From an uncultured delta proteobacterium (GTDB lineage: Bacteria > Desulfobacterota > Desulfobacteria > Desulfobacterales > CAWEAR01), in the NCBI GenBank assembly GCA_963806835.1, contig CAWEAR010000033.1, positions 33,992 through 97,991 on the forward strand: a stretch of 64,000 nucleotides of DNA, read 5' to 3'. Positions 6,446 to 50,088 of this stretch are shown here, piece by piece (the first letter of the stretch is position 1; each line of letters starts with the position of its first letter). The position numbers and the translations under genes were made by a program. A model generated the notes under the pieces. That model saw only the letters and a program-made list of their open reading frames with translations. It ran no database searches and was not told the DNA's origin.

Positions 6446-7763
6446 TTAATACATAAGCTCAGGTAAAAACAGAACAATCTGCGGAAAAACTGTCATAATA
6501 ATAATACCGGCAATAATGGCAATCAGAAAAGGAAATATACCTTTGAAGATAGTTTCAAGCGGAATACCGTTTTCAATAATCCCCTGTGCAATCCCGAAGA
6601 CCACATATACATTAATTCCGACAGGCGGCGTGATTACACCCATCTGAGTAACCAGCACAATAATAATTCCGAACCAGATCGGATCATATCCTATATCAGT
6701 AATTACCGGAAAAAAAATCGGAATCGTGAGCATAACCAAAGCAAGGGCATCCATAATACATCCACCGATAAAATAGACAAAAACTATTGCGCTGATAATC
6801 ATATACGGCGGCAAATTAAGCCCTCCGATCCATGAGGCAATGTTAAAAGGTATCCGGGTAACAGCAAGAAATTTTCCGAAGATAACAGCGCCGGCAATCA
6901 GCATCATGACCATACATGAGGTTCTTAGAGTTTCCTCCAGAGATTTGACAAATCCCTTCCATGTAAGCTGGCGCCTGATCAGAGCAATAACAAGGACTAT
7001 AAATGCTCCTACTGCCGCGGCTTCTGTCGGGGTAAAAAGACCTTTGAACATCCCGCCTATCACCAGAATGAAGACTATTAATGTATCACTCATGCCTGAT
7101 AAAGATTTAATCTTCTCTTTCCATGTAAATTTTTCACCCGGAGGTCCCTGATTCGGATCAATGCGGCACCAGATATAAACCGTAAGAATAAAGAGAAGTG
7201 TCAGCAGGAGAGCGGGAAAAATTCCTGCGATAAACAATGCGCCGATAGATTGCTCTGTAAGTACTCCATAGACAATCATTACCACACTCGGAGGCATGAT
7301 CATTCCAAGCCCTCCGCCTGACGCCACAGACCCTGATGCAAGTTCATCACCGTATTTATAGCGTCTCATCTCAGGCAGTCCTACGGTTGCCATAGTCGCG
7401 GCGGTTGCCGGGCTTGATCCGCATACAGCTCCGAATGCAGTACACGCAGATATTGTTGCCATTGCCAGCCCTCCGCGTGTGCTTCCGAAATATTTGTAAG
7501 CTGTGTCATAAAGCCTGCCACCCGATGCCGCTGTTAAATGCAAACTGCCCCATCAGGATAAAGAGCGGAATAGTTGTGAGTCCGTAAGAAGAAAATGCTT
7601 CATAAATATTTCTGGACAGAAGATTCAGCCCTCCTTTGCCGGAGACGATTATTGAAAAACCTGCATAACCGACCATTGCCATAACATAGGCAACAGGCAT
7701 CCGTGTCATAAAGACAGCCAACATAACAATAATACCGATAATACCGATAAGCGTAGTATCCAA
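6446..7763 (-). CDS. dctM: TRAP transporter large permease DctM (two ORFs joined by a homopolymer frameshift near 7520)
   Basis: The 85-aa ORF (7506-7763) and the 365-aa ORF (6446-7543) together match DctM architecture (LFILMGQFAFNSGIG|GRLYDTAYKYFGSTRGGLAMATI..GSSPATAATM). Reading GGG as GG in GGCATCGGGTGGCAGG gives GIGGRLYD. Confidence 0.85.
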
Positions 7764-7780
7764 TTTAATTACTCCTGAAA

Positions 7781-7982
7781 GTTTGTAATACTGCCTTTAG
7801 GCAGAGTTTGTAGTACCCCGCCTTTAGGCGGTGAATCAGATGATTATACTGATATGACAGACCGCAGAGTTTGTAGTACCGCCTTTAGGCGGTGAATCAG
7901 ATAATTATACTGATATGACAGACCGCCTAAAGGCGGTACTACGAACTTGGACAGACCGCCTAAAGGCGGTACTACGAACTTG
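7781..7982. repeat. Array of palindromic units GTAGTACCGCC-TTTA-GGCGGT (family P1), both orientations
   Basis: At least five copies of (G)TTTGTAGTACCGCCTTTAGGCGGT or its complement ACCGCCTAAAGGCGGTACTACGAACTT, between the dctM start and the tpsA-like stop. Confidence 0.9.
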
Positions 7983-8081
7983 TTGTGATAATAACATGCT
8001 CATCAGATAAAGAATATCCGCCCCGTTTAACAATTATTTTTTTGATCTGTTTTGTATCTTTCTTTTCATTTTGAAACATTT

Positions 8082-10811
8082 CTAATCTTTTCTTTTTTCA
8101 TCTTTTTTATCATTATCAAACCGGAACAGCGGACCCGGCAGCCAGTCATTCAGAGAATTTGCTGCGCTGTCATGCCCGCTTATCAGAAACCGGCTTATAT
8201 CTTCACCGGAACGGGCTGAACAGGGGAGTTTCATCCATTTTGCTGCATCAACTGTATCGGCAGGAAGTAATGTCATACCCGAAGTAATATCCAAATCAGG
8301 TGCTTCAATCTTCACAGTTCCGTCATTTCCCCTTTTTGACGTGGCTGTTATTCTGCTGTCTGCTGATTTGATGTAATTATCCGTCAGAATAAAAATTGCT
8401 CCGCCGTCTCCGTCTTCGGCGTTTGCCGTGATATTGCCGTGATTTAATATAACGAATTTTGAATCTGCTTTCACATCTCCGCCGTCTCCTGCTCCGATTA
8501 AAACAGTGCCGGTAATATCTCCGTTATAAAGATAAATTTCATTCCCGGCTTTAACGGATATTTTACCGCCGCCCGCGCCGTTTGCTTCTGTTGTTATTGT
8601 ACTGTTGCCGGAAATTTTTACAGAATCTGATGCACTGACATTAATAGTTCCTGCATTGCCCCCGTTTTCTTCCGCATTGCTTTTGGAAGATATTGCTGCA
8701 TTATTCTCTAATTGAAGACGGCTGATATTCAAATCAATTTCACCAGCCTGCCCGCCGCCATCGGTGCTTGTGCTTATCTCTCCGCTTTTATTAAGAGATA
8801 CTTCTTTTGCGGTTATCTGAATTTTACCCCCGTCCCCTGCCTGTTCCATTTCGCCGTAGGATGACGCAAAAATACCGGCAGGATATTCGTCTGTGCTGTT
8901 TTTGCCTGAAATAAAGAGCGAATCATAAATATGAATTTTTATATCGCCGCATTTGCCGGTACCGTAAGAAATGGCGTTTATCTGCGAGCCATCGCCAAGA
9001 TACAGTTTTTCCGCTGTTACCTGAATCATGCCTCCGTCACCCGCCTGATCTGATTCACTTTCTGTTCCTGCATATATGCCGCTTTGCCAATCGCCTGAGA
9101 TATTTTCACCGGAGATTCTGATTGTACCGCCTGCCTGAATATTTATATTGCCGCCGTTACCTGCTCCGATTGTTGCCGCACTAATCTGAGCACCGTCTGT
9201 AATCTGCAAATCTCCTGAATTTATTTCAATTGTTCCGCCGTTACCCGCGGCTTCGGTTTCACCCTGTGCATTTGAACTGATTTTAGTCAGATAACCTGAA
9301 CTGCTCTCACCGGAAAGGCTTATCAGATCACTTTGAATCTTTATATTTCCGCCGTTACCTGTTCCGAAACTTGTTGTGCCGATCTCTGCTCCGTCTCTTA
9401 GATATGACTCTTTTGCAGTAAATTCAATGCTTCCGCCGTCACCGGCTGATTCTGTTTTCCCCTGAGCATTTGAAACAATCTTGGATGCTTTGCCATTACT
9501 ATTTTCACCGGATAATGTAATTGAATTATCAGTATGAACTGTTATATGTCCGGCATTGCCGGGTCCGAAACTGGTTGTGCCGATTTCTGCTCCGTCTCTG
9601 ATATTCACATCTTTTGCAGTTATTTCAATCCTTCCGCCATCGCCTGCGGAATCTGTTTTATCCTGTGTATTAGAAACAATTTTGCAAATATCCGGTTGCT
9701 CATTTTCACCTGAAAGAGTAACAGAATCAGAGACTTTAATTATTATATTGCCGCTATCGCCTGAACCCTCTGTTTTTGCGTTTATCCATGCTCCGTCTGT
9801 AAGATTCAGATTATCTGCCTGTATATCTATACCTTTGCCATTGTCCGAACCATAAGTAATGGCATTTATCCTGCTGTTATTCATGACAAATTCACCGGCA
9901 CGGATATAAACAGCGCCGCCGCCTGTTCCGTTTGCGTTTATCCATGCTTCATCGGAAATACTTATATTTCCAAATTTTTCAAAACCGGAAACATCAGGTA
10001 CGCTCTCAGTTATTGCAACTTCTCCGCCTGATACTACACTCACTAAATTGATATATCCCTCAGGAGCATTTACAGAACCGGGATGTTCTTTTAATTTAGC
10101 CACTTCCCCTTCTTCTCCGGTATTGTAATATGTTCCTCTCTTTATCTCAATATCTCCGCCGATAATAGATACGGTATTTCCTTCTTTCACATGAAGCCCT
10201 GTATGGCTGTTTTCATCCCATTCCTGTTCTGTAATTTCTCCTTTTCCTTCAATACTGATAAGACCTGAGACTTTGGAAGTCTTTATATTTTTATCCAAAA
10301 AACCGAAAGCAGCCGGTGCGGCAACAGAGAGAATCTCATTTTCCAATGGCTGAACAAAGAATTTTTCATTCTCTCCCATACGCAGATAATCGGCTGTGCT
10401 TACATGAAATGACCCTGCTAAGTCCAATGACGCATTTGGACCAAATAATATGCCTGCGGGATTTAGAAGATAAAGATTTTCTGCGCCGGATACTATTTTT
10501 CCGTTAATCCATGAATATTCACCGCCGGTTATCCTGCTGATGGTATTGGTTATTCCTGAATCATTAAAAACAGCACTCTCGCCTGTATGAAGATTGAATT
10601 TCCCGAAGCTGTGAAAAAGATTCCCGCCTTGCTGTGTTCCGCCTGTAATATTGAATGTACTGCCGTCAGAAGTTACGGTTGTGCCGAGTCCGGACGATGT
10701 GATGCCTTGCGGATGCGATATTCCGCTGCTGTTCAAGTCTATAGCGTAAGCCGGAATAACAATGATGGAGGATATAATGATGATACTTATACACAGCTTG
10801 TTATAATTCAT
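8082..10811 (-). CDS. Two-partner-secretion exoprotein (filamentous haemagglutinin N-terminal TPS domain + beta-helix repeats)
   Basis: Signal peptide, then a TPS-domain signature (GGNLFHSFGKFNL..AVFN..ISRITGG..INGKI...NLYLLNPAGILFGPNASLDL). This is followed by about 8 repeats of the type SGEN..K.VSNAQG.TESAGDGGxIE.TAK. Confidence 0.85.
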   Translation of the reverse strand: MNYNKLCISIIIISSIIVIPAYAIDLNSSGISHPQGITSSGLGTTVTSDGSTFNITGGTQQGGNLFHSFGKFNLHTGESAVFNDSGITNTISRITGGEYSWINGKIVSGAENLYLLNPAGILFGPNASLDLAGSFHVSTADYLRMGENEKFFVQPLENEILSVAAPAAFGFLDKNIKTSKVSGLISIEGKGEITEQEWDENSHTGLHVKEGNTVSIIGGDIEIKRGTYYNTGEEGEVAKLKEHPGSVNAPEGYINLVSVVSGGEVAITESVPDVSGFEKFGNISISDEAWINANGTGGGAVYIRAGEFVMNNSRINAITYGSDNGKGIDIQADNLNLTDGAWINAKTEGSGDSGNIIIKVSDSVTLSGENEQPDICKIVSNTQDKTDSAGDGGRIEITAKDVNIRDGAEIGTTSFGPGNAGHITVHTDNSITLSGENSNGKASKIVSNAQGKTESAGDGGSIEFTAKESYLRDGAEIGTTSFGTGNGGNIKIQSDLISLSGESSSGYLTKISSNAQGETEAAGNGGTIEINSGDLQITDGAQISAATIGAGNGGNINIQAGGTIRISGENISGDWQSGIYAGTESESDQAGDGGMIQVTAEKLYLGDGSQINAISYGTGKCGDIKIHIYDSLFISGKNSTDEYPAGIFASSYGEMEQAGDGGKIQITAKEVSLNKSGEISTSTDGGGQAGEIDLNISRLQLENNAAISSKSNAEENGGNAGTINVSASDSVKISGNSTITTEANGAGGGKISVKAGNEIYLYNGDITGTVLIGAGDGGDVKADSKFVILNHGNITANAEDGDGGAIFILTDNYIKSADSRITATSKRGNDGTVKIEAPDLDITSGMTLLPADTVDAAKWMKLPCSARSGEDISRFLISGHDSAANSLNDWLPGPLFRFDNDKKDEKRKD

Positions 10812-16262: not shown

Positions 16263-17333
16263 TCAGGTTTTGAAACCGGCACCATATTGTCCGGTGATAA
16301 AACGGGTCAGAATATTAAGGGCGCCGACAATGTCAGCCTGCTCTGAATGCCCGCATTTCAGACACTTGAAATTCTCATTGACCCGGTTACCCCTCTCGGT
16401 ATGGGCGCATAAAGGACACATCTGACTGGTTTTATAAGGATTCACGCTCCTGAAGGAAACACGGTTTTCTTCACAGCGCATCTCGATAATTCTGAGCAGT
16501 TCCCTGTAATTCCAGTTGCCGAGAGTCTTTCTGAAATTCTTTGAACGGTTTTTCTTTCCGCCCTGTTTAAGTCCTTTCAGATTTTCACAGACAGCAAGAC
16601 GCATTTCACTGAAATTCAGTTCTTTTACAGTTTTATGTATATAATATGAAAGGGTTTTTTTTGCCCGTTTATAAGCCTCTGAACCCTGTCTTTTACGCTT
16701 TATGATATTTATCAGAGGCTTTACTTCAGAGCCGTATAAAACGCCTCCGGAGGTTGCCATAAGATGATTTATTCCGCAGTCAATCCCGGCAAGTTTCCCT
16801 GATGTTTTCTTTTCACCCGTCTCTTTTTCAAAAGAAAAGATGACATATTTTCTGTGAACTGTAACAGATTCCGACATTTTCCATCCGGAAAACAGATTCA
16901 TATGACGGTGGCGTTTCAGAGGGATATGCAGTTTTATCTTATTGCCTGCGGAGTGAATCACAAGCCACAGGTCAAAAGAATTGCGCCCTTTCTCAGTCCT
17001 GACGCACTGGGATGAGAGAATCATCTTTTTTCCTGTATGGACGGGCTTTACAGGTTCAATCCCCTTTGCATCCGCACTCCTGACCGCGCTCTGCACCATG
17101 CCGAGAGCCTCTCTTGCACAGCACTGGCGCATACGGGCTGAAAGCCATGATGAGGGGATATTTACAATCTCTTTTTTCAGGTCTTTTCTCTGAAAATCAT
17201 TTCCGAAGAACATTTCAATAAAGATATTCGCAACACGTGAATATTCATCCATTATTTCACTGAGAACATCACGCTTTTTTTCCGTCATGAATTTCAGAGA
17301 TGTCTTTGACGACCTTGTTATTTTCATTTTCAA
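16263..17333 (-). CDS. tnpB: TnpB (OrfB) RNA-guided endonuclease-like protein
   Basis: 356 aa. The RuvC-like triad is present (GIDCGINH; VCENLKGL; EQADIVGALNI). Zn-ribbon CPLC...CLKCGH. Confidence 0.85.
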   Translation of the reverse strand: MKMKITRSSKTSLKFMTEKKRDVLSEIMDEYSRVANIFIEMFFGNDFQRKDLKKEIVNIPSSWLSARMRQCCAREALGMVQSAVRSADAKGIEPVKPVHTGKKMILSSQCVRTEKGRNSFDLWLVIHSAGNKIKLHIPLKRHRHMNLFSGWKMSESVTVHRKYVIFSFEKETGEKKTSGKLAGIDCGINHLMATSGGVLYGSEVKPLINIIKRKRQGSEAYKRAKKTLSYYIHKTVKELNFSEMRLAVCENLKGLKQGGKKNRSKNFRKTLGNWNYRELLRIIEMRCEENRVSFRSVNPYKTSQMCPLCAHTERGNRVNENFKCLKCGHSEQADIVGALNILTRFITGQYGAGFKT

Positions 17334-17889
17334 GTTCCCTTATCAGCTTTTCAGTCTTTCTTCTGCTCCGCCTCAGTCCGTAAAGCCTTGCGGTGAAGCA
17401 TGTTACAAGACTTACAAAATCCTGCATCAGTTCGTCTCTGCCGCCTGCCGATTCATTGATGATTTCAATCCGGCAGCCCTGAGATTCTTTAAACAGCCTG
17501 ATATAATTGAATCCGAATCTTGTCAGTCTGTCTTTATGTTCAATCACTATTCTTGTAATTTCAGGGTTTTTAAGAAGTTTTTCCAGTTTCGGGCGGGCAT
17601 CGTTCAGTCCCAATGCGCATTCTTTTACAACCTCTCTGATTTTATAACCTTTCGCAGCACAGTATGCACAAAGACGTTCCGCCTGACTTCCGAGATTCTT
17701 TCTGTTTTCAGATGATGAAACACGGGCATAACAGACTGTGTATTCAGGTCTGCAGGGCGAATCTTCAGGTATTAAAATTTTTCCGAATGCATCCTGAAAG
17801 GCACCGGGAATTTTGCCGGCTTTGTAACGGTTCCATGCGGCACGGTATTTAATTCCGTGTTCTTCCGCATATTCACTTAAAGTTTTCAT
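17269..17889 (-). CDS. tnpA: IS607-type serine recombinase TnpA
   Basis: 206 aa. N-terminal MerR-like HTH (LSEYAEEHGIKYRAAWNRYKAGKIPG), then a resolvase catalytic domain (VCYARVSSSENRKNLGSQAERL...DRLTRFGFNY). It overlaps tnpB by 65 nt. Confidence 0.85.
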   Translation of the reverse strand: MKTLSEYAEEHGIKYRAAWNRYKAGKIPGAFQDAFGKILIPEDSPCRPEYTVCYARVSSSENRKNLGSQAERLCAYCAAKGYKIREVVKECALGLNDARPKLEKLLKNPEITRIVIEHKDRLTRFGFNYIRLFKESQGCRIEIINESAGGRDELMQDFVSLVTCFTARLYGLRRSRRKTEKLIRELENENNKVVKDISEIHDGKKA

Positions 17890-23280: not shown

Positions 23281-26069
23281 TTAAAACGTATAGCCAAGTG
23301 AAAAATGAAATCTTCCGCTGCTCTCACCCTCTTCACGATCAAGTTTAATGCCGTAAAGAAATCCGATAGGACCGATTGGCGTAATATAGCGGAGTCCAAG
23401 CCCCACTGTTGTGCGGTAATCTGCGGTATCATCATCCTCATCAGGAATATTACTTATCATTCCGACATCATAAAAACCTGTCAGTTCAAAATTCATCCCC
23501 AAATCAAACCTTGCTTCAAGACTTCCTGAAATCGCCTCTTTTCCGCCCTGGGGTTTTCCGTTTGTATCATAGCAAAGCATATTTTCACTGAATCCCCGTA
23601 CATCAGATGTACCGCCGAGAAAAAAGAGCTGATCTTTCGGAACATTCCCTTCTGAATCAACCGGAGCAATATAGCCTATCCTTCCGTAGCACGCAAAAGT
23701 AAGCCGTGAAAGCGGAGTCCAGTAATATCTTGCGTCAAACAGGTATTTGAAAAAATTATCCATATCATTCTCAATACCTCTTGAAATATCAACTGAAAAA
23801 GCAGAAAATACACCCTTTTTCGGACGGATAAAAGAATCCCTTGTATCATAACGGACTGAAGGGGTTGTTACAAAAATGGTTCTCGGCTCAAATTCTTCAT
23901 CAGATTTGGAACTGACTGAATCATCACGCTTAAACTGTTCTCTCTGCTCAAAACGGAAATTCAGACTTGTCCCCAGACTCTTAAACCAGTCTTTATTAAA
24001 TCCCGCGGATGCACCGTAAGTTCTTGTCCCGAAATCCTGATTAAGCTCCTCCCGCTGATCCATAAAAAAATTCGCAGTCCCTGAAATCCGGAATCCGAAA
24101 AGCCTCGGTTCCGTAATTCCGATTTCACCGTGATGCCCGATTTCACTTATCTCTCCGCTTATCCACGCATCTTTGTTGGTTCCGAAAAGATTATGATCCC
24201 CGACTTTTGCATGGGCAAAAAAATTCTTTTCTGTATCATAACCTGCCCCTGCCTGAAAAAAGTAAGGTTTTTTCTCCTCCATTTCAACAAAAAGATTCAC
24301 ATCTTCTGCTTTTTCCTTTAATCCGATTGATTTAAACTGAACTGAGTTGAATGTGTCTATATCCCTGATATTCTTCTGTGTTTCAAGCATTTTTTTCAGA
24401 GAAAAAGGATCCCCGGCTTTACCTGAACCTCATTCTGAATAATACGCTCTTTGGTTCTGAAATTTCCTGTATAATAAATCTGTCCCATCTCCACAAAGCG
24501 ACCCTCTTCAACTGTATAAACTATATCGGCATTTTTCTGATCCGAAGATATTGAAAAAGTCCCGCTGACTTTGACATGAGGGTATCCCCTCTCTGAAATC
24601 AGTGCTGCCAAAGCATTTTCATCATTCTGTATAAGAAATTGCTGAAACGGTTTTCCTTTTTTCATAAAAAGAGCATCATAAGCCTCTGTTTCGGAAAGCG
24701 TTGTAAGCCCGTTTATTTTTACCGAAGATACCTGTGTGGCTCTTCCTTCTTCAATCTCAAGGGTTATATCAACTTTTCTTTTATCTTCACTCCATTGAAT
24801 ATTCTCTTTCACCTGTGTATTCATATATCCGTTTTTCAGATAAAATGCCTGAATCGCCTGAATATCTTCTTTTAACACCTTTGGAACAAACGCCCCTTTA
24901 TTTAAAGTTCCGGGTATTTGAGTCAGAATCTGTTTTCTTATCTTCTCTTCTTCAAATGAGTTATTTCCGGCGATCTTTATTGAATTGACAATCGCCTGAG
25001 GTCCCTCTTCAATTATAAAGGAGAGGTTCCGATCCGTTTCATTCTTGGCGGTATCTTCAATCTTTATATCTGCTTCAAGATAGCCTGCATTTTCATAACG
25101 CTCTTTTATCTTTTTTACGCTCTTTTTTATCCCGGAATCATATTTGTTACCTTCTTTGAAAAGCACTATATCTTTTTTTAAAGTAAATCCCCAGAATTCT
25201 TTATTTTCTTTAAATTCAATATCATAATGCTTTCCTTCATCAATCGTCATTAATACCGTAACACTTTTTTTCTTTTCATCTTTCTCCACTGCAAAATTTA
25301 TCGCGGCATCAGCATATCCTTTTGTTTTATAGAATTCTGTCAGTTCTTTTATATCTTTTTTCAGACTCTCCTCGACAAACCGCCCTGTACCCCTGGGAAG
25401 CATAGATGAAAGCCAGATTTTCATTCTCAGTTTAAGTCTTTTTTCCGAAAAAGCCTTATTCCCCTGAATATTAATCTTTTTCAGGATATAATAAGCCCCC
25501 CGTTTTATTTTGACATGAATGGAAAAATAACCGTCTGCCGGATCCTGATGCGAAGTTACTTTAACTTCCGGTGAGATAAATCCTTCTCTCCGGAAAAGCT
25601 CAGTTATCAGTCTCTCCTGTTTGGGAAGCTCATCAGGGACAAATGCGTCTCCGGTATAAATTGTCATGGTATTCAGGATTTCCCGTTCAAAAAGCGGAAA
25701 CGCCCCTTCTGTCTTTATATCTTTGATCAGTTGAAACGGTGTCAGAGAAAAGATAATCGCTGTCTTATCTGCTTCATCCTGGGAATCTGCATGAATCTCC
25801 TGAAATTTTTTGCACAATTTCAATGCTTCAATGGTGTTTTGGAGTTTTTCAGCAGAAAAAGGTTCTCCTTCTTTAAGGAAGATCATTTTTTCTGCTATAT
25901 TTCTCAAATAAGATTCATTAACCGGGGAATCCTTAATATTAACAAGTATTCTGGAGATTATCTGATCCCGGGCTGTCTCAGGTTTGCTCTCTTCTGAATA
26001 GGCATGATTAAAGAGCCAGATGCCTGTTAATATAATCAAAAAACACATAAGATATTGAATGAATTTCAA
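23281..26069 (-). CDS. bamA: Outer-membrane protein assembly factor BamA (POTRA and barrel ORFs separated by one frameshift at ~24408)
   Basis: The 557-aa ORF has POTRA-type repeats. The 369-aa ORF is the beta-barrel (ends ..RFHFSLGYTF). At the junction, AAGCCGGGGATCC reads KPGILFL*. With one more G it reads KPGDPFSLKKMLETQKNI, joining both ORFs. Confidence 0.85.
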
Positions 26070-33519: not shown

Positions 33520-34551
33520 ATGCCGAATAAAATCTTAAAATATTCATCAGATATTCAGGGCATGGTTTCCGGTTCATCTTTACCGATTGATCTGGATAAT
33601 GGAATCCTCTCTCTGCGTCCTGAAAAATTATCTGACTATGTGGGACAGCAGGAGGTGGTTGAAACCCTTAAAATCGCTATTGAAGCCGCAAAAAAACGAA
33701 AAGAGCCTTTAGAACATCTCCTTTTTCACGAACCTCCGGGGCTTGGGAAAACCACGCTTGCGCACATCATAAGCAATGAAATGGGGGGGAAACTTACTGT
33801 AACATCGGGTCCTGCTCTTGAAAAAGGAGGGGATTTAATCGGTATTCTGACACATCTTGAAGAGGGGGATGTTCTTTTTGTGGATGAAATTCACCGTATT
33901 CCAAGAACTGTTGAAGAGTTTCTGTATCCGGCAATGGAGGATTTTGCAGTTGATTTTGTCTTTGACAAAGGAGTTCATGCACGAAGCCACAGATACCGCC
34001 TGAAACAATTTACCCTTGTCGGAGCAACAACCCGTGTGGGTCTTCTCTCAGCCCCTTTGCGTGACAGATTCGGCATATTCAGAAGCCTTGACTTTTACAG
34101 TGAAGATGATCTGGTAAAAATTACAATGCGTTCTGCTGCATTACTGAACATTGTCATTGATGATGGGGGCGCAGCAGAGCTTGCAAAACGCTCCAGAGGA
34201 ACCCCCAGAATTGTAAACAGGCTTTTAAAACGGGTCAGAGATTATGCACAGGTCAGGGGAGACGGAAAAATCATCAAAGAGACTGTATCTGTTGCCCTCT
34301 CGTTAGAAGGTGTTGATGAAAAAGGACTTACAAACCTTGATCGCCGTTACCTGAAAACAGTTATTGAATTTTACAAAGGGGGACCTGTCGGGATTGAAGC
34401 AATTGCCGCAACTCTTCAGGAGGAGACAGATACCCTTGTTGATGTGGTTGAGCCGTATCTGCTGAAGGTCGGGCTGATTATAAGAACATCATCCGGCAGA
34501 AAAGTATCAAAAGAAGCATATAAGCATTTGGAAAAAATAATAAGTAGTTAA
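33520..34551 (+). CDS. ruvB: Holliday junction branch migration helicase RuvB
   Basis: [12 protein letters not shown]..., Walker A region [11 protein letters not shown], Walker [10 protein letters not shown], sensor TLVGATTR, and [16 protein letters not shown]. The track ORF opens at TTG 33460. An ATG at 33520 or 33562 is more plausible. Confidence 0.9.
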
Positions 34552-34594: not shown

Positions 34595-37018
34595 ATGTAT
34601 CCGATACAAAAAACAGGTACACCTGTGAATAAACAGAAGCGTGAGGAGACAGGAACTGTACTTATAGCCCTGATTTTCGTTATGATAGCAGTTGCCGCAA
34701 TCGGGCTGATTACATTATCTGTAAATACCATATCTACATACAGTCAAATGAATGTGAATAATTTCAATAAAGCATATTATCTTGCAGAATCAGGCTGTAG
34801 ATGTTTTAGAAAGGGAATTTTTCCGATGCCTTATACAAGTAATGATTATACATTGACAGACGGAGGAAAAATTTCTGTAAAAAAAGAAGGGATGAAAACC
34901 TTTTCGATCAAAGGTATTGTAAATCAGGGAACAATCTTTGAAGCGGCAAGAAAAATTTATTGTATTGATAGTCCTTCCTGTGTCAATACTTTATCTGTGT
35001 GTAATAATAATACTTTTATCTCTAAGGGTTTGAGCTACTGGAATTTTGATGATAATTCTGATCCGGGAAATGATTCATGGGATGGCAATCATGCAACATT
35101 AAACGGTGCTTTATCATGGTCAGATGTATTGGAAGAAAAAGGAATTGTAAACAGTGCGTTGGAATTTGATGGAAGCGATGATTATTTATACACTCCTTTT
35201 AAACCGAATGTAATCGTAGATAATAATCCTTTTACAATCATGTTCTGGGCAAAACCGAATAGTTCAGGAAAGCAGACTATTCTCGGTACAAGTGCCGGAA
35301 CAAATAATCTTTCTGTAGGAATTGATTCAGGTAACTGGTATTGGGAATATGGAGATAAATTTTCAGTTACAATTCCAGAGCTTCTGTCTGTATCCAATCA
35401 ATGGCAGCATATTACTCTTGTTTATACCGGAATTCCGGATCAGAAGATGATTCTTTATGTTAATGGAGAACAATCAGCAAGTTATGATTACGGAACTTCC
35501 GGCGGCAATGCAGCAATGCCGGGTACTGATCTGTTTATCGGAGCAAAAAATGATAACGGAAGCGGCGATATTGAATATTTTAACGGTTTCCTTGATGAAT
35601 TGGCAATTTATAACAGAGCATTAGATTATAATGAAATTAAAAGAGTTGTCTGTATCAATGGTTTGAGCTACTGGAATTTCAATGATGAATATAATCCGGG
35701 AAAAGATTACTGGGGAGGTAAAAATGCTGTTTTAAACGGCGCAGCATCATGGACAGATATTTGGCAAAATGACTTTACCAACTGCCTTACAGAATTTGAA
35801 GGAGTTGACGGATTTTTGGAATTTGACGGAACAAATGTTTATCTTTCCGCGCAGTTTAAACCTAATGTTATCAAAGATGATAAACCTTTTACAGTATTAT
35901 TATGGGCAAAGCCGACAAACTTGGGAACTCCTCAAACCTTACTCGGAACAACTGACGGAACAAATCATTTTTCCATCGGAATTAATGTTTCAGACAAATG
36001 GTATTGGGAATACGGGGATAAATCTTCAGATACATCCATATCTGGGGTGAACAATTGGCAACATATCGCTCTTGTTTATACAGGCGATTCTGGAAACATG
36101 ATTACATACTTCAATGCTTCTCAATCCGTCTCTTATGATTACGGAACTTCAGGCGGAAACGCAGCAATGCCGAATCAATATCTTTTTATCGGAGCAAAAA
36201 ACAATAACGGAACAGGTGCTGTTGAACATTTTAAGGGATTCCTTGATGAAACAGCAATTTATGACAGGGCATTAACTGTCTGTGAAATCAGAGAATTTTA
36301 CAATGCTGTATGTCATGCAGGATGTGAAGCGGTTGCATATTATCCGTTCAATTGCAATGCTGATGATGAAAGCGGATGGTGTAGGTCAGGAAACGGAAAT
36401 AAAGGAGAAGTCAACGGAGCAGTATTGACAGGAGATCGGTTCAGTTGCATTGAAAGGGCATATCAGTTTGACGGAACAGATGATTATATTCATGTTTCTG
36501 ACAATGATACTTTGGATTTATCTACTGAAGGAACATTGGCGGCATGGATTTATATCAATGATTACAGAGAGCTTGGCGGAATTATACATAAGGGGGATAA
36601 GGGAAATTTTACTGATGAAGCATATTCTCTGCAATTCTGGTTCGGAGAATCCGGTAACGGAAAAAAGAAAATAATCTTTGCCTTACTTGAAGAACCGGCA
36701 GTTTTGCGTTCACTGGTTTCGGATATTCTGCTTAACCTGCATGAATGGTATTATGTTGCAGGTACATGGGATAAAGACGGAATGTATCTTTATATTATTG
36801 ATAAAAATAATCTGCTTACTTATAAAGAAAATACATCAGTAAAAAATATATCTGCAAGAAATACTTCCGGCGGTCTTAATATCGGCTCTCAATTGGGAAG
36901 CGGGAGTTACGGCGGTTACGGGAATTGTCCGTTTAATGGTGTAATTGATGATGTTGTTGTTTCCAATAAGAGATTCAGCGAGGATGAGATCAAAGAATTA
37001 GCATACGATCACCCCTGA
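34595..37018 (+). CDS. PilX-N-like membrane-anchored protein with three LamG (concanavalin-A-like) domains
   Basis: The N-terminus EETGTVLIALIFVMIAVAAIGLITLS...NKAYYLAESG resembles the PilX N-terminal domain. Two ~205-aa near-repeats begin GLSYWNF(D/N)D... and end FLDE.AIY(N/D)RAL. A third LamG-type module carries FNGVIDDVVVSNKRFSEDEI. Confidence 0.6.
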   Translation: MYPIQKTGTPVNKQKREETGTVLIALIFVMIAVAAIGLITLSVNTISTYSQMNVNNFNKAYYLAESGCRCFRKGIFPMPYTSNDYTLTDGGKISVKKEGMKTFSIKGIVNQGTIFEAARKIYCIDSPSCVNTLSVCNNNTFISKGLSYWNFDDNSDPGNDSWDGNHATLNGALSWSDVLEEKGIVNSALEFDGSDDYLYTPFKPNVIVDNNPFTIMFWAKPNSSGKQTILGTSAGTNNLSVGIDSGNWYWEYGDKFSVTIPELLSVSNQWQHITLVYTGIPDQKMILYVNGEQSASYDYGTSGGNAAMPGTDLFIGAKNDNGSGDIEYFNGFLDELAIYNRALDYNEIKRVVCINGLSYWNFNDEYNPGKDYWGGKNAVLNGAASWTDIWQNDFTNCLTEFEGVDGFLEFDGTNVYLSAQFKPNVIKDDKPFTVLLWAKPTNLGTPQTLLGTTDGTNHFSIGINVSDKWYWEYGDKSSDTSISGVNNWQHIALVYTGDSGNMITYFNASQSVSYDYGTSGGNAAMPNQYLFIGAKNNNGTGAVEHFKGFLDETAIYDRALTVCEIREFYNAVCHAGCEAVAYYPFNCNADDESGWCRSGNGNKGEVNGAVLTGDRFSCIERAYQFDGTDDYIHVSDNDTLDLSTEGTLAAWIYINDYRELGGIIHKGDKGNFTDEAYSLQFWFGESGNGKKKIIFALLEEPAVLRSLVSDILLNLHEWYYVAGTWDKDGMYLYIIDKNNLLTYKENTSVKNISARNTSGGLNIGSQLGSGSYGGYGNCPFNGVIDDVVVSNKRFSEDEIKELAYDHP

Positions 37019-37304: not shown

Positions 37305-37577
37305 TTAAGAATTATCCATCCCCAACAGCATAATATTCAACACTGCCAATGACCGGGAACTGATAACATATCGCGTCTGAAACTGGGAATCAAGACGCCG
37401 GGCAATTTCAGGTCCCCGGGTCAAAAGCCAGGGCGGAACCGTTTCATTATAAATCCCTTTGAGCGGAAGCGGATAATTGGGATGACATATATATGCCTGA
37501 AAATACTCTTCCAATATTTTTTTCATATCTGTTTTGAAGCGCTCCGGGTCGGGCTGATTTTTCCAGAAATTATCCAC
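37305..37577 (-). CDS. Hypothetical 90-aa protein overlapping the 3' end of the helicase-like gene
   Basis: The ORF starts with GTG inside ...TGTGGATAA, an 8-nt overlap with the upstream stop. It has no TM segment and no family I recognise. An alternative ATG lies at codon 18. Confidence 0.4.
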   Translation of the reverse strand: MDNFWKNQPDPERFKTDMKKILEEYFQAYICHPNYPLPLKGIYNETVPPWLLTRGPEIARRLDSQFQTRYVISSRSLAVLNIMLLGMDNS

Positions 37578-40500
37578 AGAACATGGCGTTCAGCGGAACC
37601 GCAAGCCACCTGTTCATAAGTGATCCTTTTGTTTCACTTTCCGTATCACTTTCTGATTCTTCTGCAAGTACATTGAGAATCGGGAGCAGTTCATTTGCCG
37701 GAACACGCACTCCTTTAACAGTATCCGGGTTTTTTGCCAGATTGCTCAGTTTTGCACATAATGCCTTGAGTATATTACCTGTTTTTTGAAGATGCGTATC
37801 AATCCTGTGGGTATTTTTCTCTTTAATCTTCTCTTTAAGGGGGTGAAGATTTTGCAGAAGCAACTCTCCGACTGTGTAACATTCTTCAGGAAGATATTCA
37901 TTCTTTGCAATAATATCAAGACTTTTTTCTGCATCATGCATGAACTGCTTTAACAGTTTTTTACGGTATTCTTCTGAAATAAACGTTTCAGGATGATTGC
38001 CGGTATGAGAGAATATCACGGTTTCATTCTGAAAAATATCGCGGATATGCTGTGTGATATACCAGAGTTCTTTGTTTTCGGGATCCTGTCTGTAAGCAGA
38101 TTCCAAAGCACGGATTGAACCTGAAAGATTATCCATTGTGGTCTGAGATGCCCCTTGCACCAGACTTCCTGATATTGGAATACATGCTACTGGTTTGCCA
38201 AAAAGATCAGATGCTCCGAATATCCGTGTGAAGATGCTCATCCGCATAATCATCTGAGTTGCAAAAAGATTGACGATCTGCTCCATTTCAGAAGCTCTCA
38301 AGTCTTCCCTCGGAGTACAAAGCTCTGTTTTGTAAGATACAAAGACCTGCTGAATAATTATTTCAATATCCCGCTCTAATTTATTACCTTTTCCCGTTCC
38401 TCTGCCCCGGTATATCCCCTGTAAAAATTCCATAAAATTATTCTCAAGAGAGAATGTCGGAATAATACAGATAATCTTAGTTGCATTAGGAAAACTGATT
38501 CCGCGTGTGCCTGATGATGTCATGATAATAATATCAGCCAGATCACCGTACTGTGAAACAGGAACTTCCCGTTCTTTTATATTTTTCTCCGATTCTGAAA
38601 CAGGAGAGAGTAATTTACGCTTCTCCGCCGGAGGTGTAAAAGAATGAAGAGTGATAACGACTGGGCATTTTTCTGTATTGACACGGCTATAAGCAAGGAT
38701 GTATTCTTTAAGCATATCCACAGAGACTTTATCCTGTATGATCACAATTGACTGCTCTTTTGGTCTTTGCTGCCAACGATCCACAAGCTCCTGAGCAAGC
38801 TGCATGAGAAGACGGTTTTCCAGATGGCGGTAAGATTTAGATAAGCTATTGTTCTCAAACCCTAAGGGTCTTCGAAGACCCTTAGGGTTTTCTTCCTGTA
38901 AGAAATCAAAAACAGGTCGCCATTTCAATCTCAGATTTGATGCGGGATAGACATTTGCGTTGATGATTTTAGCCGGTAAATCCATAATTTTAGCTGATTC
39001 AATACTAAGTCCTTTGGAATCAGCATTTCCGTTAAAGAGAATCTGATCCGGCTGTGATCTGCTTTTATTCAGATACAGTTCAACAGATGACGCATTGATA
39101 AGAGAGGCATCAGCGATAATCATCCGAAATTTCAAAGGGCATATCTTTCCTATCTCTTTGAATCGCTTCTTGATATTTATCTGAAAATCTGTCATCTCCT
39201 GAGCAGTCTGACGCCCTGCGCTGTCGCCTGTTACTTCATCAATAAAGAATATAATCTCATTAACCTGAGATGCAAATTTTTCAACAGAGCCAATATCCGG
39301 ATCCCTGTTTGTGCCGAATATCTTTTTCAGATTTGCTTTGAACGTGGTAATCTCCTGCTCCAGTTCCCTGTTGGACTGAGTAGTAACACACGCGATAATC
39401 CGTCTGTAATGATAATCTTTTACAAGCCTGTGAACAGCCTGCATTGTAGTATTAAAGACTCCGGGGATAAAAACTTTTTTCCCTTCGCCTGCTCCGCCTT
39501 TTTCAAGCCTTTTGTAAGATTTTCTTATCTTTATCAGCGGAAGACCTTCAAGGTCTGATTTATCAGGATAAAGCGGCTGAGATTCAAGAATTTCCGCATC
39601 TTCGGGGCATAAAAAGAGAAATTTCGGATCATTCGGCAGATCACGCCGGGACCGGCAACTCAAAGCGGATTTTCCGTGATATGCTTCAGCCGCCTTCAGC
39701 AGAGCAGCATTGGTGTTAATACATATCATTTCATCCTTACCGATAAGCTGATTTTTATCATTCGCGGGATCAAATTTTGCAATCAGGTCTGTATTTACCT
39801 GAAGTCTGGGGCTTACATAAACCAGCAGATATGTTTTCTGATAATTTGCAAGAATATTGCGAAGTGCAGTAGTCTTGCCGATACCAGGTGTTCCTGAAAG
39901 CACATAAATTTCAGTATCATCAGAATTATTCCAGACGTATCTGACAAGCTCCGCATGAGCATCCTGCATGGAGTTTATATCGGCATTGCAAAGATGTCGG
40001 GCAATATCATGAGGAAGCCATGCCTGAAGCTCTTTTGCTGTCGGTGCCGTGCCGGTGGGAGCATATCCTTCAATCTTTTCAGTAAATCCGTAAGTCAGAT
40101 AATCCGGCAGGCGCGTTTTGCTGAGAAAAGTCTCTTCCGCTCTTTTAAAAAGAAGATTCAGATCATCTTGCAACTCATTTGAAACATTTCTTTTTATATT
40201 CCGTAAAACAGCACGCTGAGTTGTGAGAATCTCACTTTTGCGCAGCTTCTCTTTTTCATCAGGCGTTCTGTTTTTATGATACTGAATCCCTTTATAAATC
40301 ATACCCATTTCATGAAGAAGCTCTGATTCATCTTCCCTTACATGCAGAAAATGTCTGCCCCGATCTGTAAATGCAACAATATGAAATTCAATATTCCCCT
40401 TGCCTGTTGCCCATTTATCAAAGGGTTTATCTGAAATAATCCGATCTTTTATTGTGTTATACAGTGAAAAGAGATAACCCCCGCCCTGAAACAGCTTTTT

Positions 40501-41247
40501 TGCGATCTTGTCATGGGTTGCCAACCCATTAAAATAATTTTTTAAATCCGGTGATATTTCCAATCCCAGAGTATCACTGGCAATTTGAAAATCTCTGCTC
40601 TTTATGACATTGCTCATCATGGATTTCCCGCGTCTGAGGCTCTCGTAAATATCATCCGGATCAGAGAGATTCAGTTCCGTATCCAGAGTCGGCGATGTAT
40701 GGGCAGAGAGTTCGTAACAGATAAAATGAAAGCGGTAAGCGTCATTGTGAAAGGTTCTGATGATGAACAGCATATCTGCATAAGGCATTTCACCCTTTTT
40801 TTTCAATCCGTTAAAATCAAAACCGGAAAGATTGGCGATTCGGGATAATTCTTTATGAGCTGAAACAGCTTTTTCCTCAGAGTTCAAAAATTTTCCAAAA
40901 GCCGGATTTGTATAAATCCATGCAATAACAGGATTATTTCTTCTGCATGGAAGCGATTTGACAAACTGCCGGGTTTCACAGAATCCCTGCATATATCCCT
41001 GAAATAATCTTGCATTTAAAACAGAGAGAGCGGTTTTAAGTGAGTTTGACTGTAGAAGGGATTTATCAGATTTTCTGTTAAATTGCTGATATATCTTTGT
41101 TAAATTGATTCCATCCATCTGAGATATGATCTTTGCAATCTGTTTTTCGCATATTTCCGACTGCTTAAAAGCACGCAAAGCAGATATTGTACCGGTTATT
41201 CCGCCAAGCTCATATACCTCTCCCTGTATAACACCGAATTCATCCAT
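37570..41247 (-). CDS. Large (1,225 aa) P-loop NTPase / SF2-helicase-like protein with uncharacterised N- and C-terminal regions
   Basis: Walker A LSGTPGIGKTT (39868-39897), Walker B IIFFIDEVTGD (~39225-39255), motif V-like MTSSGTRGISFP (~38488-38520) and motif VI-like QGIYRGRGTG (~38392-38421). I could assign neither the first ~440 aa nor the last ~270 aa. Confidence 0.75.
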   Translation of the reverse strand: MDEFGVIQGEVYELGGITGTISALRAFKQSEICEKQIAKIISQMDGINLTKIYQQFNRKSDKSLLQSNSLKTALSVLNARLFQGYMQGFCETRQFVKSLPCRRNNPVIAWIYTNPAFGKFLNSEEKAVSAHKELSRIANLSGFDFNGLKKKGEMPYADMLFIIRTFHNDAYRFHFICYELSAHTSPTLDTELNLSDPDDIYESLRRGKSMMSNVIKSRDFQIASDTLGLEISPDLKNYFNGLATHDKIAKKLFQGGGYLFSLYNTIKDRIISDKPFDKWATGKGNIEFHIVAFTDRGRHFLHVREDESELLHEMGMIYKGIQYHKNRTPDEKEKLRKSEILTTQRAVLRNIKRNVSNELQDDLNLLFKRAEETFLSKTRLPDYLTYGFTEKIEGYAPTGTAPTAKELQAWLPHDIARHLCNADINSMQDAHAELVRYVWNNSDDTEIYVLSGTPGIGKTTALRNILANYQKTYLLVYVSPRLQVNTDLIAKFDPANDKNQLIGKDEMICINTNAALLKAAEAYHGKSALSCRSRRDLPNDPKFLFLCPEDAEILESQPLYPDKSDLEGLPLIKIRKSYKRLEKGGAGEGKKVFIPGVFNTTMQAVHRLVKDYHYRRIIACVTTQSNRELEQEITTFKANLKKIFGTNRDPDIGSVEKFASQVNEIIFFIDEVTGDSAGRQTAQEMTDFQINIKKRFKEIGKICPLKFRMIIADASLINASSVELYLNKSRSQPDQILFNGNADSKGLSIESAKIMDLPAKIINANVYPASNLRLKWRPVFDFLQEENPKGLRRPLGFENNSLSKSYRHLENRLLMQLAQELVDRWQQRPKEQSIVIIQDKVSVDMLKEYILAYSRVNTEKCPVVITLHSFTPPAEKRKLLSPVSESEKNIKEREVPVSQYGDLADIIIMTSSGTRGISFPNATKIICIIPTFSLENNFMEFLQGIYRGRGTGKGNKLERDIEIIIQQVFVSYKTELCTPREDLRASEMEQIVNLFATQMIMRMSIFTRIFGASDLFGKPVACIPISGSLVQGASQTTMDNLSGSIRALESAYRQDPENKELWYITQHIRDIFQNETVIFSHTGNHPETFISEEYRKKLLKQFMHDAEKSLDIIAKNEYLPEECYTVGELLLQNLHPLKEKIKEKNTHRIDTHLQKTGNILKALCAKLSNLAKNPDTVKGVRVPANELLPILNVLAEESESDTESETKGSLMNRWLAVPLNAMFCG
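38857..38890. repeat. Perfect 34-bp palindrome (family P2) embedded in-frame in the helicase-like CDS
   Basis: aaaccctaagggtcttc|gaagacccttagggttt. It is translated as ENPKGLRRPLGFEN (residues ~786-799). Confidence 0.9.
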
Positions 41248-41299
41248 AGATTAACCTTTTTTACTTGATAAATCAATTATTAATTTTAAATTCAGACAG

Positions 41300-41328
41300 A
41301 TAATATTATAAAAGTAAAAAATTGTCAA
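41300..41328 (-). promoter_or_regulatory. Sigma-70-like promoter for the helicase-like gene
   Basis: On the minus strand: TTGACA (41328-41323), 17 nt, TATTAT (41305-41300), about 50 nt upstream of the ATG at 41247. The AT-rich context raises the false-positive risk. Confidence 0.4.
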
Positions 41329-41403: not shown

Positions 41404-41566
41404 GCAGAGGATTTGAATCACGGATTTACCGTATTAAAAAGATTGCGATGATTCATCTACAGGGATTGCGGTTAAGAAAAGGGATTTTATTCAGAAAAAG
41501 TAAAAAATCCTTTTCTTAAACAGAATCCTTGCAGATGCCTGTAATTTTGTGAAAGGATGATAAAAA

Positions 41567-42397
41567 ATGAGAGCTTATATAAATTCCGAATTTGCCGCTT
41601 TGAAAGCGGTATTATTAGGTTTTATTGATAATTTTAAAATACGTGAACCCGTGAACAGTGTTCAGCGCTATTATTATAAAAATGATCCGCCGCATTCTGA
41701 TTTGATGATTGAGCAATATGAAATGCTTGTTGAAATATTTGAAAATTTCGGTGTTCAGGTTTATCGCTATGACCATAAGCCGGTGAATATGGGAAGACCG
41801 TTTTGCCGTGATGCGTTCACAGTAATTCATGATACTTTATTCATTTGTTCTATGAAAAACAGACCTACACCTGATGTTACAGATTTAACGGCGGAGATTG
41901 AAACTCCTGTAATGCAGATTGATAAAGGGATTGTTGAAGGCGGAGATATTCTTATAGATAAAGATATTCTGTATATCGGAATGGGGGAACGGACAGAATT
42001 GACAGGATTGCAACGGATTAAAGAGCAACTGAACAACAAATTTGAAATTCAGCCGCTTCAGCTTAAATCTGAAATTTTACATTTAGATGTTGTCCTTAAC
42101 TTACTGGGCAAAAAGACAGCTCTGATTTATCCCGCGGCTTTTAGTGAAGAATCCCTTGATATTTTAAAAAAGCGGTATAATCTGTTTGAAATAAACGAAT
42201 CAGAGCAGTTTGCTCTCGGAACAAATCTGGTCTCATTAACGCCTGAAACCGTTATTTCAGAAAAAAGGCTGATCAGAATCAATGATTTTTTAAAAAAAGA
42301 GGGTTTTAATCTAATCACAACAGATTACAGCGAAGTATCAAAGCTGGGAGGTTCCTTTCGTTGCAGTACATGCCCGTTGATACGGGAGAAGTTTTAA
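41567..42397 (+). CDS. Guanidino-group-modifying enzyme superfamily protein (DDAH / arginine deiminase / amidinotransferase-like)
   Basis: 276 aa. GGDILIDKDILYIGMGERT, ILHLDVVLN, and a C-terminal catalytic-Cys context GGSFRCSTCPL. Confidence 0.6.
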   Translation: MRAYINSEFAALKAVLLGFIDNFKIREPVNSVQRYYYKNDPPHSDLMIEQYEMLVEIFENFGVQVYRYDHKPVNMGRPFCRDAFTVIHDTLFICSMKNRPTPDVTDLTAEIETPVMQIDKGIVEGGDILIDKDILYIGMGERTELTGLQRIKEQLNNKFEIQPLQLKSEILHLDVVLNLLGKKTALIYPAAFSEESLDILKKRYNLFEINESEQFALGTNLVSLTPETVISEKRLIRINDFLKKEGFNLITTDYSEVSKLGGSFRCSTCPLIREKF

Positions 42398-50040: not shown

Positions 50041-50073
50041 AAACCCTAAGGGTTTTGAAGACCCTTAGGGTTT
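50041..50073. repeat. Family P2 palindrome
   Basis: aaaccctaagggttttgaagacccttagggttt between the DUF5989 gene and the carbamoyltransferase. Confidence 0.85.
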
Positions 50074-50088
50074 CCTTTAAGATAACCA

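Follow-up and report, generated by a model that had tools for sequence, protein, structure and literature searches.

A Solo, Frameshifted Gene in a Desulfobacterales Contig as a Probable Member of an Undescribed, Horizontally Spread Nuclease-Like/Helicase Family with a Large Partner

Introduction

The contig CAWEAR010000033.1 of an uncultured delta proteobacterium (Desulfobacterales; GenBank assembly GCA_963806835.1) was analysed from position 33,992 to position 97,991. This stretch of 64,000 nucleotides, hereafter called the window, carries on its minus strand a large helicase-like gene, hereafter gene A. What is this gene, and with what does it work? A first interpretation, the sequence-only reading, took it for an orphan helicase of 1225 aa with a small overlapping open reading frame (ORF) of 90 aa, both forming a self-contained insertion and a candidate defence module.

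The results presented here give another picture. The two ORFs are one gene cut by a frameshift, this gene has several hundred relatives, and most of them stand beside a gene encoding a protein of about 1,000 aa, hereafter B. From the defence candidate, there remains an uncharacterised accessory module, possibly defensive; the pair made of the helicase and the 90-aa protein does not exist, the true partner being B. It is therefore proposed, with moderate confidence, that A belongs to an undescribed and horizontally spread nuclease-like/helicase family paired with B, of which the window holds a solo and frameshifted copy.

One Gene Cut by a Frameshift

Both ORFs lie where the sequence-only reading had placed them, at 37570-41247(-) for the one of 1225 aa and 37305-37577(-) for the one of 90 aa. 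The latter begins at a GTG embedded in TGTGGATAA, inside the end of the former. They are now read as follows:

37570-41247, minus strand: main frame of gene A, codons 1-1225 to a premature TAA, encoding the N-terminal domain, the helicase core and most of the C-terminal region
37305-37577, minus strand: severed tail of gene A, about 88 codons in the +1 frame, i.e., the former 90-aa ORF
about 37577-37585, minus strand: frameshift site, one extra base within ATGTTCTGTGG, located by comparison with the reading of homologues

The long ORF had been described as uninterrupted and the short one as a separate partner, and neither description holds. A homology search gave 25 close relatives of the 1225-aa ORF, sharing 51-62% identity with it over 91-100% of its length. 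The full-length close homologues have 1,270-1,320 aa, i.e., 45-95 aa more than the window ORF, and the 90-aa ORF is 56-61% identical to their C-termini (61% with residues 1188-1270 of P0004, E = 4e-35; 56% with residues 1224-1308 of P0012, E = 2e-35). It is collinear with these C-termini, which places a +1-nt frameshift in gene A, 88 codons ahead of its natural stop. At the break point, the homologues read ...NRWLVVPLSAMHIDNFWKDQ... without interruption (pattern AM(H/C)I(D/N)xFWK); the window reads ...NRWLAVPLNAMFCG and a stop (AMFCG-stop) in frame 0 and VDNFWKNQ... in frame +1. The segment 37305-41247(-) is thus a single gene of about 1,313 codons, cut by a 1-nt insertion.

The 90-aa ORF matches nothing in Pfam, NCBIfam or PADLOC. 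Lack of conservation of the two ORFs as a gene pair had been set beforehand as a refutation of the first model, and it is observed in the sense that no genome has both as separate genes. The “small partner” is an annotation trap made by the frameshift, and this is the corrective point for the window. Programmed +1 frameshifting was also considered and rejected as unlikely: the site (UUC-UGU-GGA-UAA) has neither a slippery nor a stop-stalled sequence, as such sites are generally understood, and all the homologues are single ORFs.

A Horizontally Spread Family and Its Partner B

Far from being an orphan, gene A has at least 386 relatives among the GTDB species representatives, of which about 185,000, one genome for each species, were scanned. 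The cyanobacterial branch comprises 668 proteins at E <= 1e-10, whose source names are only “helicase-related protein”, “helicase” or “ATP-binding protein”. The relatives come mostly from filamentous cyanobacteria (Microcoleus, Oscillatoria, Rivularia, Tolypothrix, Fischerella, Trichodesmium, Moorena, Nodularia and others). Other carriers found in the GTDB scan are Desulfobacterales, Beggiatoa-like Thiotrichaceae/Parabeggiatoa and Thermogemmatispora, to which protein and plasmid searches add the Betaproteobacteria Variovorax and Cupriavidus. The gene of the window belongs to the Desulfobacterales/Thiotrichaceae clade. Gene sharing among filamentous gliding bacteria of different phyla is documented (PMC6390638), which fits this distribution.

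Furthermore, the A family is found on 10 plasmids, of which 6 are predicted to be conjugative, and the A and B genes of the Trichormus variabilis plasmid adjoin an integrase and a transposase. The A family has no match in 50,697 phage records, and a phage origin was rejected accordingly. This family, which is horizontally spread, is also undescribed: searches of a literature library by locus tag, accession and description found no paper on it or on B, and no match in Pfam, NCBIfam, PADLOC, PHROGs or PDB names either protein.

Gene-context look-ups revealed that a protein of about 1,000-1,100 aa without any Pfam match, B, recurs beside A. An iterated hidden Markov model detects it in 77 of the 86 loci. 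Of the nine loci where it is not detected, six are on contigs that stop at the helicase or close to it, while the three others (L017, L045 and L064) are true solos. When all the neighbouring ORFs are clustered, only A and B recur across diverse loci. In nearly all the other genomes, A is read as co-transcribed with B. B is directly upstream of A and on the same strand in cyanobacteria and Thermogemmatispora, and downstream of A in the Desulfobacterales/Thiotrichaceae clade. The Thiotrichaceae and Desulfobacterales copies of B share 52% identity, and those of this clade share 23% identity with cyanobacterial B (E = 7e-22). The most conserved part of B is its C-terminal third.

The link between both genes can be very tight. 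For example, in plasmid C of T. variabilis ATCC 29413, B (AVA_RS29110) overlaps A (AVA_RS29105) by 4 nt. Moreover, the metagenomic protein P0318 (2,028 aa) is a natural B-A fusion: its residues 1-990 correspond to B (33% identity to cyanobacterial B) and the N-terminal domain of A is found at residues 1022-1406. This fusion is a “Rosetta stone” for the cooperation of A and B. P0140 (1,881 aa) may be another one.

B has no match in Pfam, PADLOC, NCBIfam, PHROGs or, by profile search, PDB sequences. That it could be a degenerate paralogue of A was rejected by hhalign (probability 0.2%). In the window, no B was found by tblastn (best E = 0.2): the window copy of A is solo, without B within 64 kb.

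In plasmid C of T. variabilis (L087, 12921-20968), two hypothetical genes encoding 828 aa and 1,853 aa lie directly downstream of the B-A operon and are followed by a DEAD/DEAH helicase gene. Both have weak, partial matches to TmtA of Tiamat. These genes may be a second accessory system.

Relic or Sequencing Error

The tail of gene A is as well preserved as the rest. Its mean identity to 16 close homologues is 58.5%, versus 59.1% for the body, its frame is open as far as the normal stop, and it includes two invariant and about eight nearly invariant columns of the family. Gene A as a whole keeps every invariant family column. Another gene of the window bears on how this frameshift is read. The bamA gene is split into a POTRA part (24396-26069(-)) and an Omp85-barrel part (23281-24390(-)) because one G is lacking from a GGGG run (between ...KPG and DPFSLKK...), which suggests homopolymer indel errors in the assembly. 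The conservation of the tail, its open frame, its conserved columns and the split bamA suggest that the lesion of gene A is recent or is a sequencing artefact. On one reading, the window copy would then be a pseudogene or relic of very recent origin; on the other, the gene would be intact and error-prone assembly would have misread it. The local copy is probably a relic or a casualty of the assembly, and it is probably incomplete.

It is quite conceivable, though we lean slightly against it, that the frameshift is only a sequencing or assembly error, gene A being intact and functional and its partner B being located elsewhere in the genome. This would account for the preserved tail and for the retention of all the invariant residues. 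It would also agree with the break of bamA, an essential gene, at a GGGG run, which is typical of a homopolymer miscall, and with the few other genomes that have solo A genes (L017, L045 and L064). However, the extra base of gene A is outside any long homopolymer. Furthermore, all the loci of the nearest clade with enough downstream sequence have B within a few kb downstream of A, whereas this place is occupied in the window by a convergent LamG gene.

Decaying copies are seen elsewhere. In the Desulfobacterales locus L014 (10001-16149), A is matched in fragments only and B consists of pieces of 817 aa and 83 aa. B is also split into two ORFs in L025 and L052.

A Generic SF2 Motor

The helicase core and the region that follows it are delimited as follows:

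38293-39969, minus strand: superfamily 2 (SF2) helicase core, residues 427-985 (motifs and AlphaFold2 model), with motif I at residues 452-460, Ia at 479-485, II at 667-675, III at 712-715, V at 910-919 and VI at 943-950
37305-38292, minus strand: C-terminal region, residues 986 to about 1313 after repair of the frame, interrupted by the frameshift

The sequence-only reading had recognized an SF2-type core with two RecA domains from four motifs, and the residues concerned were located in the window protein (GTPGIGKTT 452-460, FFIDEVTGD 667-675, TSSGTRGISF 910-919 and QGIYRGRG 943-950). The spacing of about 210 aa noted between Walker A and Walker B is also there. RecA1 has an insertion. The SF2 motifs I, Ia, II, III, V and VI are all present and in order. 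Across 27-51 members of the family, the invariant forms are GxPGIGKTT (I), SPRxxxN (Ia), DExxG (II), DAS (III), SxxRGxxF (V) and QxxxRGR (VI).

The structure of residues 425-1313 was modelled with AlphaFold after repair of the frameshift. In the core, the predicted local distance difference test (pLDDT) score is mostly 85-95. This model has 349 fold matches in PDB at E <= 1e-3 (best E = 1.9e-9), and the 50 best ones are all SF2 enzymes. Chd1, Pol-theta, UvrB, Brr2, UvsW, DEAH helicases, MDA5, RecQ, Lhr and MrfA match almost equally well (E = 1e-9 to 1e-7). No named SF2 subfamily fits, the top matches spanning at least eight subfamilies with template modelling (TM) scores of 0.15-0.42. As modelled, the core of A is a genuine two-RecA SF2 motor, generic and outside the named subfamilies. 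Of the structure prediction and Foldseek check that the sequence-only reading had called for, the SF2 part is thus positive, while the N-terminal domain gave no significant match (see next section).

Sequence searches say less. The window protein has a P-loop match to Pfam AAA_19 (E = 7e-6) and a Helicase_C match below the gathering cut-off (20.1 vs 23.5). In Pfam, NCBIfam, PADLOC and PHROGs, distant members of the family likewise have no more than marginal P-loop or Helicase_C matches. No record of the window protein turned up in the public assemblies. No Pfam, NCBIfam or PADLOC model matched the N- and C-terminal regions, in line with the first impression that they belong to no recognized family, and sequence and profile searches of PDB chains with full-length A, its N-terminal domain or B gave nothing meaningful. 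The C-terminal region is conserved and mostly helical, with a pLDDT below 50 for most of its length, and has no Pfam or PDB match.

A Putative Nuclease Domain

Two features are distinguished ahead of the helicase core:

39973-41247, minus strand: N-terminal family-specific region, residues 1-425 (AlphaFold2 model and profile search)
40474-40782, minus strand: putative PD-(D/E)xK (RecB/Cas4-like) active-site motifs (conserved columns and positions on strands and helix)

A profile search with the N-terminal domain among 1.84 billion representatives retrieved only 258 proteins. Among the 150 matches listed, the full-length proteins share the same architecture of about 1,150-1,460 aa. The domain is therefore specific to the A family. 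Its AlphaFold2 model has a pLDDT of 76.7, with core blocks above 90. It begins with a helical bundle, followed by a strand (107-113), a helix, two strands (159-167 and 170-180), a disordered loop, a helix (247-266), strands (286-304) and further helices.

Three motifs of this domain are conserved in all the clades. The first one, A157-D158, is at the start of the second strand. The second, (E/D)179-x-S181 (E179-L-S181 in the window), is on the third strand. The third, (D/N)246-K247...K251-L-x-Q254-x-x-x-Y258, is on the next helix. D158, K251, Q254 and Y258 are invariant and S181 is invariant or nearly so. The invariant D158, immediately before strand 159-167, stands where the Asp of nuclease motif II is expected, and the invariant Q254 and Y258 of helix 247-266 form a QxxxY motif, the mark of the RecB family. 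An invariant lysine, K251, is found on the helix that follows the third strand, three residues before Gln254. From the order of these motifs and their placement on strands and helix in the model, it seems reasonable to regard the domain as nuclease-like.

Weak Foldseek matches point in the same direction. Those with a name are mostly PD-(D/E)xK proteins: MGME1 (five times), HinP1I, CinB, UL24/UL76 and YqaJ, as well as Cas4, DUF2800, VRR-NUC and exonuclease VIII-like proteins.

The domain could alternatively be a sensor or regulatory module, A being only an ATP-driven switch or translocase and the effector activity being borne by B. This appears rather unlikely, but has arguments in its favour: no nuclease matches the domain significantly in structure or sequence, the canonical lysine of motif III is missing, and the strongly conserved C-terminal third of B could be an enzyme. 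Against it, the invariant D, the acidic-x-S and the KxxQxxxY follow each other in the RecB-type order on the expected secondary-structure elements, and in each of two independent structure libraries, the weak matches lead to PD-(D/E)xK proteins.

Possible Role of the A-B Module

An accessory and horizontally mobile nuclease-helicase module is the best reading of A-B. A and B would form a complex, in which the SF2 motor would use ATP to translocate on nucleic acid or to unwind it and the N-terminal nuclease of A would cut it, while B would be the subunit for specificity, sensing or regulation. The most likely role of this complex would be defence against foreign DNA, as the analogy with Hachiman, Cas3 and DISARM suggests. 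More tentatively, A-B may be a two-component nuclease-helicase system of immunity or genome surveillance, in which B and the N-terminal domain of about 425 aa would be new protein families without relatives in Pfam, PADLOC, NCBIfam, PHROGs or PDB. Such a system may be widespread in cyanobacteria and shared horizontally with bacteria that have large genomes and are often filamentous, a proposal as tentative as the preceding one.

The gene context in the nearest clade suggests a defence role. While no PADLOC model matches A or B, known defence genes are found at several of these loci. In a Thiotrichaceae locus (L001, 14007-15883), and also in L002 and L003, a complete PARIS system stands between the A and B genes. 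In L001, AriA (E = 4e-18) and AriB (E = 4e-20) are both matched over the full length of their profiles; a Panacea-type toxin-antitoxin gene and a gene for a STAND-like ATPase lie on this contig too. In another Thiotrichaceae locus (L011), a type IIG restriction-modification enzyme (6920-9946, E = 5e-220) is encoded directly upstream of A. The L004 locus has a PDDEXK_2 transposase-like gene in the interval that separates A from B, and genes of Roc/COR/LRR proteins come next. More generally, the neighbourhoods in which the pair is inserted vary across loci.

Several observations weigh against the proposal of a nuclease-helicase defence module. Concerning the N-terminal domain, the (D/E)-x-K of motif III is lacking, its strand lysine being replaced by Ser181; Foldseek gave no significant match (best E = 1.8 in PDB and 0.07 in BFVD); and no sequence or profile search, including that of its profile against PDB sequences, links it to any nuclease. 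The C-terminal region of A is poorly modelled, and B matches nothing, so that its role is a guess. No PADLOC model matches A or B. Only about 5% of 133 dereplicated neighbouring ORFs match defence models, most of the others being metabolic or housekeeping genes, and the A family is absent from phages. As for the window, B might sit outside the 64 kb, and the frameshift might be a sequencing error.

Comparison with Known Systems

Hachiman is the system whose mechanism most resembles the one predicted for A-B. Both would be compact accessory modules that pair an SF2 helicase with a nuclease of the PD-(D/E)xK type; in both, the motor is predicted to sense or load on DNA and to control the nuclease. 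In Hachiman, the N-terminus of the helicase contacts the nuclease (PMC12278908), whereas A has its nuclease-like domain fused to the N-terminus of the helicase. Neither A nor B nor their neighbours have a DUF1837/HamA match in Pfam or PADLOC, and HamB scores only E = 0.08-0.09 in PADLOC, on P0030 alone. Motif II is DEVT (DEVTGD) in A but DEGH in HamB, and the D...ExS...KxxQxxxY of A differs from the D-E(X)K of HamA. Furthermore, the core of A is not specifically Ski2-like, and B, with its 1,000 or so residues, has no counterpart in Hachiman. Membership was thus rejected on every feature tested (DUF1837, HamB model, motif II, Ski2-likeness and extra B).

Large SF2 helicases of more than 1,200 aa also occur in the multi-gene defence operons of the YprA/DUF1998 type, i.e., DISARM (DrmA/B), Druantia (DruE), Dpd and ARMADA (PMC12458937). 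Like A, they have insertions in RecA1 and associated nucleases (PMC12458937). A was excluded from this group, as it lacks the OB-CON-DUF1998 module and any Pfam DUF1998 match and has no conserved cysteine for a four-cysteine zinc cluster (in the alignment of the family, no column has >=80% Cys). MrfA is only one among many SF2 fold matches of equal score.

In the same way, A recalls Cas3, in which one chain bears both a nuclease, at its N-terminus, and an SF2 motor, and depends on a partner complex. However, A has no HD domain and its partner is one protein. The Cas3d and Cas3fv matches of A in PADLOC are marginal and partial (E = 0.002-0.01). With no HD match and neither cas genes nor CRISPR array nearby, membership was rejected. 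The only repeatable, although weak, PADLOC match is that to mad8 of MADS (PDLC04140; E = 6.6e-4 for the window protein and 1.4e-5 for P0027). This match covers less than 20% of the protein, in the P-loop/RecA1 region, i.e., the generic ATPase part, and A-B is not accompanied by a conserved set of the remaining mad genes.

The main functional rival to defence is a repair role. A-B would then be a repair or recombination machine that processes DNA ends, a functional analogue of AddAB, RecBCD or AdnAB rather than an immune system. The likeness lies in two large subunits, of about 1,000-1,300 aa, a DNA motor, and a RecB-family signature of acidic residues and QxxxY in A. The repair helicases UvrB, Pol-theta, RecQ, Lhr and MrfA are among the fold matches of A, the neighbours of A-B in cyanobacteria are mostly housekeeping or metabolic genes, and PADLOC, as said above, matches neither protein. 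However, AddAB, RecBCD and AdnAB are conserved housekeeping repair enzymes with SF1 (UvrD-like) motors and a C-terminal nuclease, whereas A has an SF2 motor and an N-terminal nuclease-like domain, and B is neither helicase-like nor a paralogue of A. Membership of the AddAB/RecBCD group is ruled out by the SF2 motor alone. Even a mere functional analogy is improbable considering the patchy distribution of A, which resembles that of horizontally transferred genes (a few hundred of about 185,000 species representatives), its presence on conjugative plasmids and near an integrase and a transposase, the variable insertion sites, and the nested or adjacent PARIS and type IIG genes.

The initial model, in which a stand-alone helicase and a 90-aa partner with a gene of its own make up a self-contained defence insertion, can practically be abandoned: the overlap of the ORFs at TGTGGATAA is compatible with coupling, and the promoter-like site upstream and the opposite strand of the neighbours fit it, but in homologues made of a single ORF, the C-terminus is collinear with the 90-aa ORF, no homologous locus encodes this stretch as a separate gene, the conserved partner is B, and the hallmarks of an insertion are absent from the window locus.

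If A-B works as a nuclease-helicase module, it would represent a new architecture, in which a nuclease is fused ahead of an unclassified SF2 motor and joined to a large partner, and an addition to the helicase-centred systems of immunity or genome maintenance. It would also assign a function to several hundred gene pairs of cyanobacteria annotated as “helicase-related” and “hypothetical”. Among its carriers are cyanobacteria of ecological importance, such as Microcoleus, Trichodesmium, Nodularia, Dolichospermum and Moorena, which are poorly covered by the defence catalogues built around E. coli and Bacillus.

Surroundings of Gene A in the Window

The following features flank gene A or lie within it:

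41300-41328, minus strand: sigma-70-like promoter match TTGACA-17-TATTAT, about 50 nt upstream of the ATG
34595-37018, plus strand: Laminin_G_3 (LamG) protein
41567-42397, plus strand: ADI/DDAH-fold (amidinotransferase-type) protein
38857-38890: perfect 34-nt palindrome inside gene A, at residues 786-797, a copy of a dispersed palindromic element

Much of what the sequence-only reading had said of the surroundings stands. The promoter-like site matches the consensus at 11 of 12 positions and is the best site in the region, as a consensus match only. The two neighbours, a Laminin_G_3 protein and an ADI/DDAH-fold protein, are unrelated to gene A and both on the opposite strand. No methyltransferase, cas or recognizable defence gene adjoins gene A. 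Its insertion as a self-contained mobile unit was rejected, no flanking repeats and no GC anomaly being detected at this locus. The 64 kb contain no tRNA gene.

An imperfect inverted repeat (41454-41537; 35-nt arms, 80% complementary, and a 14-nt loop) is located in the divergent intergenic region between the promoter-like site of the helicase and the gene of the ADI/DDAH-fold protein.

The palindrome found inside gene A coincides with a 7-aa insertion (within ENPKGLRRPLGF) that is seen in no homologue. The element, of about 34 nt (AAACCCTAAGGGnyTTnrAAGACCCTTAGGGTTT), has three copies in the window, at 38857-38890, about 2525-2558 and about 50041-50074. Its 12-mer GACCCTTAGGGT has 6 matches in the window, versus 0.07 expected. 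The two other copies stand between genes, each shortly before a gene start. The copy in gene A looks like a dispersed element of the REP/RPE type inserted in frame.

The window also carries an IS607-like pair (16263-17889(-)), in which a serine-recombinase ORF with a Resolvase N-terminal domain (17269-17889) overlaps a TnpB-like ORF (16263-17333) that has a Cas12f1-like TNB domain.

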